Of a stretch of DNA of 64,000 nt, positions 9,837 to 14,007 are shown in pieces. The stretch comes from Escherichia coli 042 (GTDB taxonomy: Bacteria > Pseudomonadota > Gammaproteobacteria > Enterobacterales > Enterobacteriaceae), in NCBI RefSeq assembly GCF_000027125.1, contig NC_017626.1. The stretch is one strand, 5' to 3'. The position numbers and the translations under genes are program-made. The stretch's first letter is position 1. Each line of letters begins with the position of its first letter. A model generated the notes under the pieces. That model was given only the letters and a program-made list of their open reading frames with translations. It made no database searches and was not told the DNA's origin.

Positions 9837-11078
9837 TTAATGATGTGCCACGTCGGTCTGCGCAACAGTGCGATTTACACGCAGAGTGAAAATAATCAGC
9901 GAACCGATGACCGCCACCGCTGCCAGCGTCAGTAATCCCGCCGCATCGCTGGCAAACAACGTTTCTGCTTTCACGCGCAGGATCGGGGCAATAAACCCAC
10001 CCACTGCACCAAACAGGTTTACAAAACCAATCCCCGCCGCCAGCGCCGTACCGGAAAGCAGTTGTGTCGGCATCGTCCAGAACACCGGCTGCACGGCAAT
10101 AAACCCGATGGCTGCAACACACAGCGCTACGATCGCCAGTACTGGAGAAAGCAGCCCGGAGAGACCAATACCAATGCCTGCCGCCAGTAATGTCAGCGCC
10201 GCGACATTACGCCGTTCGCCGGTTTTATCGGAATAGCGCGGAATAAGCCAGGTCCCAAACAAGGCCGCGACCCACGGAATGGCGGTGACCACCGACGCCG
10301 TAAAGCCCACTTTTGTCCCCAACAATGCAGCAACCTGCGTCGGCAGGAAGAAAATTAATCCGTAAACCGCCACCTGAATGGTCAGGTAGATAATCGCCAG
10401 TTGCCAGACTCGCCCATTACGCAGCGCATCGCTCAGTCGAGAAGTCACTTTCTGTTGTTCTTCACTTGCCAGTTGGTTGATAAGCAACGTTTTTTCTTCT
10501 TTACTCAGAAAACGTGCCTGCTCCGGCGTGTCATCAAGCCAAAAGAATGTGAATACCCCAGCGCCGACTGCCAGCAATCCTTCAATCACAAACATCCAGA
10601 ACCAGCCGGGATGCCCCATAAATCCATGCATCTCCAGCAGCGCGCCGGAAAGCGGTGATCCCAGTGTTAACGCCAACGGTGCGCCCATATAGAACAGCCC
10701 CATAATGCTGGCGCGATTACGCTGCGGAAACCATTGCGAGGTGAGATAAATCATACCAGGGAAGAACCCGGCCTCCGCAGCACCAAGCAGAGTGCGAACG
10801 ATCAGAAATTTCGCTTCAGTATCGGCCCATGCCATGGCTGCCGAAAGAAATCCCCACAGCAGTGTTGTCGTACCAATCCAGGTTCTGGCCCCCAGTTTGC
10901 GCATCAAAAGATTCGCCGGAACACCCAGAAACGCATATACCACAAAGAAAATGCCTGCTCCCAGCGCATAAGCTTCATTACTCAGCCCGGTATCAATCTG
11001 GTAGGTTTGTTTGGCAAAACCGATATTCGAACGGTCGAGAAACGCCAGCACATACAGCGCCAACTTGACATCCTCCAC
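9837..11078 (-). CDS. rhmT: L-rhamnonate MFS transporter, N-terminally altered or truncated by the adjacent IS
   Basis: 413-aa ORF with an MFS fold recognised as RhmT/YfaV. Its only available start is a GTG at 11076-11078, inside the IS terminal hairpin; native RhmT is recalled as about 429 aa. Confidence 0.7.
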
Positions 11079-11094
11079 GCCCTGAAGAACGTGG
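11073..11094 (+). repeat. IS terminal imperfect palindrome (tnpB-proximal end)
   Basis: TCCACG-CCCTGAAGAA-CGTGGA, 14 bp beyond the tnpB stop. Confidence 0.55.
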
Positions 11095-11107
11095 ATCCCT
11101 GCTACGT

Positions 11108-12316
11108 TCAGGCTGTCGCCTGAATCATTTCGGTGGGTTCCTGCTTCAACGAGCGGCCTGACTGCACCATCTCTCCACAGGCAAGAACGGCGTGCCCCGC
11201 CGCTAAAATGTTACGAGCGCCATTTACATCGGCGTTCGCTGTATATCCACATACCTGGCATCTGAATTGACTTTGTGACAGGCGATTTTCTTTCGCAGTA
11301 TGACCACAGCACGCGCAACGCTGGCTTGTGTACGCTGGCGGAACAGCAAGCAACTGACCGCCACTCCAGAGCTGCTTGTACTCAAGCTGGCGGCGCATTT
11401 CATACCAGCCCTGATCCAGTATCGAACGGTTTAAACCTGATTTTGCCCGGACATTGCGCCCCGGCTGGCTGAGCGTACCCGCTGCTGACTTTGACATGTT
11501 GCTGACCTTCAAATCCTCAATGACTATCATTGCGTGGTTTTTGCTGACGGTCGTTGTGACTTTGTGAAGGTAGTCCCTGCGGATATTTGCGATACGGGAA
11601 TGCAGTCGCTGTATTTTGCGTTTCTGCTTCTGCCAGTTGTTGCTGAATTTGACCCTGCGGCTTAACTGTCGCTGAAGTCTCGCCAGCTTCTTCTGGTTTT
11701 TCTGAAAACTGTTTACAGGCTCAAAGACTGTGCCATCTGACAGCGTGGCGAGTTTAGCCACGCCAGCATCCAGCCCGACCATTGATGCTGAAGGGTGAAC
11801 CGGAGTTGATACTTCACTTTCTGTCTGAATACTGATGTACCACTTACCGCAGGACTGGCTGACAGTGACATTTTTTACAACACCCGTGACCTGACGGCTG
11901 TTCCGGTAGCGCATCCAGCCCAGTTTCGGCAGAAAAATACGGCTGTTTTCCTGATCGAGCTTAACGCCCTGCGGATAGCGGAATGCATCATTCTGTCCCC
12001 GCTTTTTGAATCGGGGAAAAGCAGCCCGATTCTGGAAGAAGTTTTTGTAAGCCCGCTCAAGGTCTTTCAGTGACTGTTGCAATGGCTGTGAGGGCGAATC
12101 TTTAAGCCATTGCGTTTCAGTGGCGTTTTTCCACTCAACCAGCCAGGAAGCCATTTTCCCGTAAGGGATGTATTTATTACCGGCCTCATGATTCTCATTC
12201 TGAAGCGCCAGAGCGCGATTGAAAACGAAACGACATGCGCCTGCGAAGCGCCTCATTTCACACTCCTGTTGACCACCTGGTCTTAACTGGAATTTAAATG
12301 CCTGTAATCGTTTCAC
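11108..12316 (-). CDS. tnpB: TnpB (OrfB) RuvC-like RNA-guided nuclease of the IS200/IS605 family
   Basis: 402 aa with RuvC-I GLDAGV, RuvC-II IVIEDL, Ruv[12 protein letters not shown] and a zinc finger CACCGH...CQVCG. Confidence 0.9.
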
Positions 12317-12323
12317 AGGTCAA

Positions 12324-12929
12324 ATGATACTTTGGTCTATGAAAAAAGAAACCGATATCCGGCGTGGAAGGCATTGTGTTTTCCTGATGCATGTTCACCT
12401 GGTCTTTGTCACCAAATACCGACGCCAGATTTTTGACCATGACGCGACAGAAAAACTACGCACTTACTTTTCAAATGTATGTGCTGATTTTGAAGCTGAA
12501 CTGGTTGAAATGGATGGCGAACCAGATCACGTCCATTTGTTAATTAACTATCCTCCCAAACTGGCGATATCCAGTCTGGTAAACAGCCTCAAAGGCGTAT
12601 CGGGTAGGTTACTGCGACGAGATCGACCAGATATTGCAGTCAGGTATTACTACAAAGGCGTTTTGTGGAGTCCTGGCTATTTTGCCAGTAGCTGCGGAGG
12701 TGCGCCAATATCCGTCATCCGCCAATACATTGAACAACAGCAAACACCTGGTCAGGTGGAAAACCGCGCCTTATATCCCCGCCCTGAAGGACGGGGTTTT
12801 ACAGCGCACTGGATAAAGTCATGGACTCAACAACCTCAATCCAGCCATGCTCACTGGCGATGTCCTGGCCGTTTAACCAACGGCGCAGCATATTCAGTGC
12901 CATCATTGCGCACACTTCCTGACGGATAG
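12324..12929 (+). CDS. tnpA: IS200-type Y1 (HUH) transposase TnpA; annotated ORF is abnormally long at the 3' end
   Basis: HUH motif HVHLL and the C-terminal WSPGYFASSCGGAPISVIRQYIEQ motif. The ORF reads past the terminal hairpin into the yfaY-antisense flank (201 aa against a typical 140-155 aa). Confidence 0.75.
   Translation: MILWSMKKETDIRRGRHCVFLMHVHLVFVTKYRRQIFDHDATEKLRTYFSNVCADFEAELVEMDGEPDHVHLLINYPPKLAISSLVNSLKGVSGRLLRRDRPDIAVRYYYKGVLWSPGYFASSCGGAPISVIRQYIEQQQTPGQVENRALYPRPEGRGFTAHWIKSWTQQPQSSHAHWRCPGRLTNGAAYSVPSLRTLPDG
12777..12796 (+). repeat. IS terminal imperfect palindrome (tnpA-proximal end)
   Basis: CCCCG-CCCTGAAGGA-CGGGG, sharing the GCCCTGAAG loop with the hairpin at 11073-11094. 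Confidence 0.55.
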
Positions 12930-14007
12930 CCAGGCTGTAGCGCGTAGTGCTGAAACGCACACGCAGAGCGAAAGTGCCGTCTGGCGTGGCTAGCGCAAAG
13001 TTGAGATGTTCGTTCTCGAAACCAGAAACAGCCAGTGCCAGCCCGGCAAAATGGTTGGCCCGCCGTTCTGTAATCCAGTGCGCAGTTTGCGCCAGGGTTT
13101 CCTCCTGTGAAGGAACCACTTCACACGCCAGCAATGGAGCACCTGCGCGAGAAAGTTGCAAAGCCAATAAACCACCGGTGAATTGCTCGCTCAACGTCAG
13201 GCTGAACTGGCGGTTTTGCAATTCGCGGCTGATCTGCGAGGGCAGTCCTTCGGTACCTTCGAAAATCACGCTCTGTCCGGCAACACGTTTAACGTCCAGC
13301 CACAGTTTTTCCATCGCCTGTTTCTCGCTTGCCGGTCCGGTGAGTTTCAGTTCGATAATCGGCATAGAAGAGCGATAGCCCATTGTTACCCCCGGCGGCA
13401 GTTGCAGGGTGTCCAGGCTTTGTGCCAGATCGCTTTCCGAACGACCAAATGTAGTCAAACGCAGACAAACCGGCGGCTGCGGTAAAGAAAAACGCTCGCG
13501 CAGGCGCGGCAGGATTTCGTGCTCGACCATCACCTTAAATTCTGACGGTACGCCGGGGGTAAAGAACATCAGGCAACGATTAAGCTGCACGGCAAAACCA
13601 CAGGCGGTGCCTACCGGGTTATTGATAAATTCAGCACTGGCAGGTAGCTCCGCTTGTTTACGGTTGCTCGGTGTCATTACTCGTCCACGTTCGTGGAAAT
13701 AGCGTTCCATCTCTTTGAGCCAGGCCTCATGCAGCACCAGGCCTTCACCTTTTGCTGTTGCAGCGGCGAGTGCGCTTAAATCATCACTGGTCGGCCCCAG
13801 CCCGCCGTTAACGATCAGCACATCGGCGTGCTGACTCCGTTCGCGAAGAATGGTCACTAAGTCATCAAGGTTATCTCCCACCGTATTGCGGCGAGATAAT
13901 GGCAACCCCTGATGAAAGAAAAAATCGGCCAGCCAGGCAGCGTTAGTGTCAACGATTTGCCCGTGTAACACTTCATCCCCGGTGGATAGCATTTCCACTT
14001 TTAACAT
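12799..14007 (-). CDS. yfaY: CinA-like (competence/damage-inducible) protein
   Basis: 402-aa ORF starting MLKVEMLSTGDEVLHGQIVDTNAAW (MoCF-binding CinA N-terminal domain); recognised as YfaY. Confidence 0.85.
   Translation of the reverse strand: MLKVEMLSTGDEVLHGQIVDTNAAWLADFFFHQGLPLSRRNTVGDNLDDLVTILRERSQHADVLIVNGGLGPTSDDLSALAAATAKGEGLVLHEAWLKEMERYFHERGRVMTPSNRKQAELPASAEFINNPVGTACGFAVQLNRCLMFFTPGVPSEFKVMVEHEILPRLRERFSLPQPPVCLRLTTFGRSESDLAQSLDTLQLPPGVTMGYRSSMPIIELKLTGPASEKQAMEKLWLDVKRVAGQSVIFEGTEGLPSQISRELQNRQFSLTLSEQFTGGLLALQLSRAGAPLLACEVVPSQEETLAQTAHWITERRANHFAGLALAVSGFENEHLNFALATPDGTFALRVRFSTTRYSLAIRQEVCAMMALNMLRRWLNGQDIASEHGWIEVVESMTLSSAL

Follow-up and report, generated by a model that had tools for sequence, protein, structure and literature searches.

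Loss of the native stop codon extends the tnpA reading frame of an IS609 copy in Escherichia coli 042 into DNA antisense to yfaY

The 201-amino-acid reading frame at positions 12324-12929 of the analyzed window (the whole stretch of 64,000 nucleotides from E. coli 042, contig NC_017626.1) represents the transposase gene tnpA of an IS609 copy in which the TAG stop codon of the family is replaced by CAG at codon 144. Relative to the family the copy differs by one substitution at this codon, the substituted allele is frequent in the E. coli population, and the C-terminal tail opened by it is not conserved. The long frame reflects an allele that is widespread in this decaying mobile element of E. 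coli and is not a new protein.

On the plus strand, the frame starts with an ATG at 12324 and is closed by a TAG at 12927-12929, as given by the list of open reading frames, which agrees with the first-pass annotation in that the frame stays open to 12929 and encodes 201 aa. Domain searches of the 201-aa product placed Pfam Y1_Tnp at aa 18-139 (E 4.9e-42) and NCBIfam transpos_IS200 at aa 13-138, the latter covering the whole 126-position profile with 146.8 bits versus a cutoff of 55. Both the HUH motif (H69-V-H71) and the catalytic tyrosine, Y135 within RQYIEQQ, are invariant in the protein alignment, and the product has the Y1 (HUH) transposase make-up by which the IS200/IS605 family is defined. 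The domain boundary and the position of Y135 are also in line with the earlier observation that the recognizable TnpA ends at about residue 137, at QYIEQQ. Furthermore, aa 11-145 align to Y1 transposases of known structure with 133-159 aa, from Sulfolobus (2f4f/2ec2), ISHp608 (2a6m/2vhg) and ISDra2 (2xm3), the E-values for ISHp608 and ISDra2 being 1e-17 to 5e-20. The tnpA core, located at 12324-12752 on the plus strand, comprises 143 codons, which is the entire TnpA in reference IS609 and its relatives. In the window this core is intact, without frameshift or internal stop and with HUH motif and tyrosine present, and differs from TAG-bearing copies by just three to four conservative exchanges (V6M, R31K, K51N/A47T, A131V). 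In a genome with an identical locus, PGAP annotated the same gene as a pseudogene of 426 nt ('incomplete; missing C-terminus'). The exact 201-aa product is already deposited in public databases, where it occurs on at least 1000 contigs.

Judged by homology and anatomy, the element carrying this frame is IS609, a member of the IS200/IS605 family of the IS605 type with divergent tnpA and tnpB genes. It extends from 11065 to 12812 (1748 bp), its top strand corresponding to the minus strand of the window, with LE on the right and RE on the left. Full-length identity to eight other E. coli IS609 copies amounts to 97.4-98.2%; the copy annotated as IS609 in K-12 MG1655 is 97.9% identical over 1753 bp and has the same 1748-bp extent, and the O157:H7 copy, the TnpA of which is named 'IS609 family transposase' by NCBI, is 97.4% identical. 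Homology to the eight copies stops at 11064/65 and 12816/17. Since the latter edge includes the shared TTAT target at 12813-12816, the end of the insertion sequence was set to 12812. (T/C)TTAT adjoins LE in eight of nine E. coli copies, the ninth (the yidH copy of ATCC 8739) showing ATTTAT, and the empty site in yfaY of K-12 reads CCTTAT followed by C, from which it follows that TTAT is the target and that the element ends at 12812. The target (minus strand) abuts LE and is not duplicated at RE, and the RE flanks of the copies are unrelated, corresponding to the insertion 3' of a specific tetra- or pentanucleotide without target-site duplication that characterizes IS200/IS605 elements.

The palindrome CCCCGCCC-TGAA-GGACGGGG occupies 12777-12796 and lies inside the tnpA frame, as the first reading of the locus had stated, and a related copy is found near the opposite end of the element, at 11075-11094. 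Neither palindrome recurs elsewhere in the 64-kb window, where 0 occurrences are expected by chance (pattern search), and the two coincide with the direct-repeat family D4, in which 11074-11094 is paired with 12776-12796 at 86% identity. The element thus possesses the subterminal imperfect hairpins in direct orientation, without terminal inverted repeats, that are expected for the IS200/IS605 family. LE (12756-12812, minus strand) contains the imperfect hairpin 12777-12796, which is kept in all copies and outgroups and consists, on the minus (top) strand, of an 8-bp stem with one G-T pair and an outer GCGC stem; the DNA fold of LE reaches -11.7 kcal/mol on this strand, and the structure of the plus strand is poorly defined. 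RE (11065-11107, minus strand) contains the hairpin 11075-11094, and its top strand ends with ...GATGTCAA, directly followed by yfaV sequence. The arrangement with LE next to tnpA, RE next to the 3' end of tnpB and both hairpins on one strand is the usual anatomy of the IS200/IS605 family.

Some variation was seen immediately beyond the LE hairpin. The yidH copy of ATCC 8739 (L007) and the relatives from Klebsiella (L014/L015) and Yersinia ruckeri (L018) carry GGGGATATAAGGCGC at this position, by which the palindrome becomes perfect and far more extended (RNA fold -34.9 kcal/mol, z -6.4), and most E. coli IS609 copies, including that of the window (12797-12803), have GGGGTTTTAC(A/G)GCGC in place of GGGGATATAAGGCGC. 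Moreover, the Klebsiella and Y. ruckeri relatives abut TTAC, not TTAT. A role of the LE hairpin as terminator of yfaY was considered and rejected, as K-12, which has no insertion sequence there, lacks the hairpin and all IS609 copies carry it.

The second gene of the element, tnpB (insQ), is located on the minus strand at 11108-12316, 7 nt from the tnpA start, and encodes an intact RNA-guided nuclease of 402 aa. TnpB matched the Pfam families HTH_OrfB_IS605, OrfB_IS605 and Cas12f1-like_TNB as well as NCBIfam guided_TnpB (388 bits), and PGAP lists the gene as an intact CDS in the genome with the identical locus. An Rfam scan of 10800-13100 returned sub-threshold matches alone, among them RAGATH-18 (29.5 bits versus a gathering threshold of 44.9, E 0.0065) and HgcC (20.1 versus 50 bits) on the minus strand at 11052-11181. 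This interval comprises the 3' end of tnpB and RE, where the omega/reRNA guide of TnpB would be expected.

Codon 144 of the frame (12753-12755, plus strand) is CAG, encoding glutamine, and DNA alignments revealed TAG at this position in reference IS609 and in all outgroups checked. The O157:H7 reference TnpA (WP_000604943.1; 143 aa, annotated with 432 nt) ends with a TAG that aligns to 12753-12755 of the window. Seven outgroup loci, from Salmonella, Photorhabdus, Klebsiella (two loci), Morganella, Proteus and Yersinia ruckeri, likewise have TAG at codon 144, and their proteins of 138, 143 or 146 aa all end with ...QQQTP(G/S/D); the outgroup DNA was obtained through exact-protein look-ups, and a 165-aa relative (P0061) was left out since its locus had no match to the codon-144 motif. 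Because TAG occurs in the O157:H7 reference as well as in the outgroups, it is the family state, and the copy in the window has lost its stop by one T-to-C transition at 12753. An assembly or sequencing error was rejected as its source, since no fewer than 40 complete genomes share the locus with 100% identity along 2101 bp. The copy therefore departs from IS609 proper in the intact 143-aa TnpA with TAG at codon 144, having CAG there, and otherwise shows every defining feature of IS609 and the IS200/IS605 family that can be tested from sequence.

Two alternatives had been offered in the first-pass annotation, namely loss of the native stop or a family whose TnpA terminates in flanking DNA. The former was confirmed and the latter fails for the family, the outgroups having TAG; reference proteins reaching about 200 aa through an extension conserved at the C-terminus, named beforehand as the finding that would speak against a lost stop, did not appear in the protein alignment. 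The idea that TnpA of the IS609 family regularly lacks a stop within the element, and without exception ends in flanking DNA, has next to no probability: most E. coli copies do behave in this manner, but the idea is refuted by the TAG at codon 144 in all outgroup genera and in 1256 E. coli records, and the relatives of 138-146 aa all end at the same residue. With CAG as the majority allele in E. coli, most IS609 tnpA frames of this species end in flanking DNA, and the family as a whole does not. The label 'crippled copy' was not borne out, since the core is intact. Nor is CAG specific to this copy. Outside E. coli, a relative on a JGI metagenome contig (L013, protein P0098; 81% identical) has independently lost the same stop, with CAG and a frame of 239 aa, and its tnpB is apparently interrupted by group II intron genes (RVT_1, GIIM). 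The papers retrieved for IS609 contained inventories and two statements on inactivity in K-12, none of which addresses the stop codon.

The read-through tail (12756-12929, plus strand) comprises aa 145-201, follows Q144, the CAG codon, and ends with the TAG at 12927-12929. Since the last 57 nt of the element contain no other in-frame stop, the frame continues through LE, giving QVENRALYPRPEGRGFTAHWI, and enters the DNA antisense to yfaY. It crosses the boundary at 12812 and then proceeds for 117 nt antisense into yfaY; as the yfaY stop lies inside LE, a total of 131 nt at the end of the ORF is antisense to this gene, which substantiates the overlap with the yfaY C-terminus proposed from the first inspection. 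About 19 aa of the tail are encoded by LE, the other 39 codons residing in the TTAT target and the yfaY antisense DNA. The tail is common to other copies just up to ...GFTAH(R/W)I and depends on the flank thereafter: among the E. coli homologues, ten distinct tails follow the LE-encoded stretch, corresponding to ten flanks, with total lengths of 155-254 aa. The tail gave no family match in Pfam and NCBIfam searches of the 201-aa product. Its open length is unremarkable: taking all six frames of the window together, 24% of codon positions are followed by a stop no sooner than 58 codons later. The structure model of the 201-aa product, based on an alignment of 27 sequences, is poor (mean pLDDT 46, pTM 0.41), and within it the tail has the lowest confidence (pLDDT 30-35) and is devoid of secondary structure. 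These results suggest that the 58 aa of the tail are a mere by-product and that the long frame arose accidentally from the flanking DNA, and nothing points to a meaning of the tail itself.

Termination of tnpA transcripts after the LE hairpin, at the UUUU of 12797-12800, would make the CAG mRNA a non-stop message and the 201-aa protein a rare product, which would be tmRNA-tagged and degraded, thereby silencing TnpA. Both the early termination and the silencing that would follow from it are quite improbable: at the 3' end of tnpA, CCCCGCCCUGAAGGACGGGGUUUUAC does resemble an intrinsic terminator of small size, with an RNA fold of -11 to -16 kcal/mol, but a terminator scan did not call the LE hairpin on either strand, just four T's follow it, and the RNA stem contains a C-A mismatch with weak z-scores of -1.5 to -2.2.

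In order to describe the distribution of the two alleles, exact 48-mers around codon 144 were compared with E. coli records. The CAG version was present in 4010 of 4349 matching records (approximately 92%), and the TAG version in 1256 of 4315. The CAG allele was encountered at no fewer than 10 insertion sites, and TAG copies were seen at four sites, namely tetR (ytfB-yjfZ), yeaQ/DUF1869, yidH and yfeD/gltX. Of 5426 genomes, 187 contain the yfaY-IS609 junction itself; when this junction was searched in its TAG version, even the closest match in the 5426 genomes differed by 1 mismatch, and hence no copy at the yfaY site in the 187 genomes carries TAG. The genome NZ_CP102488.1 has the identical locus, and a 64-mer with TAG finds its closest counterpart there in the yfaY copy, from which it differs by 4 mismatches, so that no TAG allele is available in this genome to supply normal TnpA. 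The occurrence of CAG at 10 or more sites implies movement of CAG elements, their mobilisation in trans or a recurrent change.

Movement of CAG elements under their own power would mean that the stop-less allele is functional, TnpA tolerating a variable and harmless tail and CAG copies being, or having recently been, autonomously mobile. The spread over at least 10 distinct sites is explained most simply if CAG elements transposed, either with their own extended TnpA or with TnpA provided in trans, and many CAG copies, such as those of the window and of the tetR site in WCHEC, keep an intact core. In the 155-aa TnpA of ISHp608 (PDB 2a6m), the residues after the tyrosine-bearing helix presumably lie outside the conserved fold. 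Nevertheless, this interpretation is considered unlikely: pN/pS of the tnpA core is about 1, several CAG copies contain extra internal stops, the one clearly recent extra insertion (O157:H7 TR01, yfeD/gltX) has TAG, and the spread of CAG could be due to trans mobilisation, gene conversion or recurrent mutation instead.

More precisely, the tnpA core had a pN/pS of 1.04, versus 0.29 in tnpB. These values were calculated from 8-9 E. coli copies, which were chosen partly by allele, form non-independent pairs and show signs of mosaicism. In this small sample, tnpA appears to evolve without detectable constraint and tnpB to be conserved under purifying selection. Synonymous divergence in the 8-9 copies was 0.016 for tnpA and thus lower than the 0.043 of tnpB, and SNP patterns among the copies L003-L010 and the window are mosaic, suggesting exchange between copies. 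Internal stops were found in the CAG copies of K-12 (yncK, codon 96) and O114 (codon 62). For K-12, IS609 has been described as inactive, without transposition in mutation-accumulation lines (PMC5009759; PMC2891674). The additional IS609 of O157:H7 TR01 at yfeD/gltX (L010) has TAG, intact tnpA and tnpB and SNPs in common with the lineage at the yeaQ site. Its features suggest a recent transposition, which would indicate that TAG copies can still move and that IS609 is not dead everywhere.

Two of the insertion sites are polymorphic for the codon: at tetR, O157 has TAG versus CAG in WCHEC005237, and at yeaQ, 503025 and O43 have TAG versus CAG in O114. At the tetR site, lineage-specific SNPs at -31 and +18 nt around codon 144 are retained; being unchanged, they limit the exchange to a point event or a patch of less than 49 bp. 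No other SNP among the nine copies follows the codon-144 pattern. A recurrent, mutation-driven conversion of TAG to CAG would account for these observations. The sequence T-TAGG agrees with the Vsr target CTWGG in four of five bases, and Vsr activity may extend to such 4-of-5 matches. Very-short-patch repair of T:G mismatches, always restoring C, could thereby turn the amber codon into CAG again and again. Overproduction of Vsr has been reported to promote CTAGG-to-CCAGG mutation (PMC2715241). Support comes from the finding of TAG and CAG at the same orthologous sites (tetR, yeaQ), with a point-like or <49-bp change at tetR, and from the absence, among the nine copies, of any other SNP with a matching pattern; suggestively, a G follows the codon in both stop-loss lineages (E. 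coli IS609 and the metagenomic P0098), and a T or C does so in four of six TAG-keeping outgroup genera. On the other hand, TAGG is retained in Klebsiella, in Y. ruckeri and in many E. coli copies, and it deviates from the canonical context CTWGG. Short-tract gene conversion would produce an identical pattern, the sample is tiny, and the change at the polymorphic sites may have gone in either direction. Recurrence by mutation is therefore held to be doubtful, and the same low probability is attached to Vsr as its mechanism. If Vsr is responsible, T-to-C changes at GGTTAGGTG should be elevated in vsr+ as compared to vsr- strains. The broader proposition, that the IS609 tnpA amber is unusually unstable in E. 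coli and repeatedly becomes CAG at orthologous insertions, possibly via Vsr, or alternatively that the stop-less allele is mobile with C-termini depending on the insertion site, is rather improbable as well. Were the Vsr bias true, host repair would destroy the stop of the transposase and help to immobilise the element while tnpB stays selected.

Flanking genes of the element were also inspected. The CinA-family gene yfaY (12799-14007, minus strand; 402 aa, Pfam MoCF_biosynth) has its last codons and its TAA stop (12799-12801) inside LE, and its product ends with ...ESMTLSSAL* versus ...ESMTLSV* in K-12. On the other side, yfaV (rhmT; about 9837-11111, minus strand), encoding an MFS transporter, has lost its original 5' end to a deletion and obtains start and first codons from RE. 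In the genome with the identical locus, the PGAP CDS of yfaV corresponds to about 9838-11111 of the window, its start at approximately 11111 overlapping the tnpB stop, the ORF list gives a GTG at 11078, and homology to K-12 ends at 11064. Both neighbours thus borrow signals from IS609, yfaY its stop from LE and yfaV its start from RE. Compared to K-12 (locus L002, 6092-8438), IS609 takes the place of 2347 bp, in which rhmD and yfaX are contained completely, along with the initial 62 bp of yfaV and the final yfaY codon. The missing DNA is delimited by one TTAT within yfaY and another within yfaV (in K-12, CCGTTTAT followed by GTTGGCG). The 2347-bp deletion is consistent with two IS609 insertions of the same orientation having recombined, or with a deletion from TTAT to TTAT brought about by TnpA. 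The configuration is common to approximately 187-196 of 5426 genomes, and no intermediate is evident.

Based on the genomic comparisons, the locus is very probably a fixed IS609 that is no longer autonomous and whose transposase gene is in early decay after the loss of its stop. The IS609 copy is placed between a truncated yfaV and yfaY and has a normal Y1 core of 143 codons, which in the family is closed by a TAG about 20 nt ahead of the LE hairpin that TnpA itself binds. A T-to-C change at 12753 turned TAG into CAG, and the frame runs on through the LE hairpin, across the boundary at 12812 and antisense to yfaY as far as a chance TAG at 12927. The first 19-20 residues of the tail represent translated LE and the remainder is set by the flanking DNA, the stop-less allele being old and common among E. 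coli IS609 copies. The extended protein is probably useless or impaired, and the element probably immobile in this genome.

A transposase frame with a lost stop is an ordinary finding and already reflected in current annotation. It accounts for the fact that tnpA appears as a 201-aa 'transposase' in older or automatic annotation versus a PGAP pseudogene 'missing C-terminus', and it traces the 155-254 aa spread of E. coli IS609 TnpA entries to one missing stop codon and not to different proteins. Furthermore, E. coli IS609 offers an example of neutral tnpA decay with tnpB conserved, and the occurrence of both TAG and CAG at identical sites might be used as a modest test case, provided by nature, for context-dependent mutation or short-patch conversion. 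Beyond annotation, its importance is small.

Among known systems, the O157:H7 IS609 reference and the K-12 copy (yncK/insQ) share with the window copy the ends, the hairpins, the TTAT target and the divergent orientation of tnpA and tnpB. Codon 144 is CAG in the K-12 copy as well, which in addition has its internal stop at codon 96, whereas the O157:H7 reference has TAG and a 143-aa TnpA as opposed to the CAG and the 201-aa frame of the window; moreover, the window copy has replaced 2.3 kb of host DNA (rhmD-yfaX). IS605 and IS606 of Helicobacter pylori are distant sequence relatives with divergent orfA/orfB that resemble the element in their layout: a Y1 gene and tnpB are divergent, tnpA points toward LE, the hairpins are subterminal, and insertion occurs beside a short specific sequence without target duplication. 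The TnpA proteins of ISHp608 (2a6m/2vhg) and ISDra2 (2xm3), the mechanistic models for Y1 transposases, have the HUH motif and the C-terminal tyrosine helix in common with the product of the window, but they are 140-155 aa long and end with their own stops. Finally, tnpA and tnpB are co-oriented in IS608 and divergent in the IS609 of the window.
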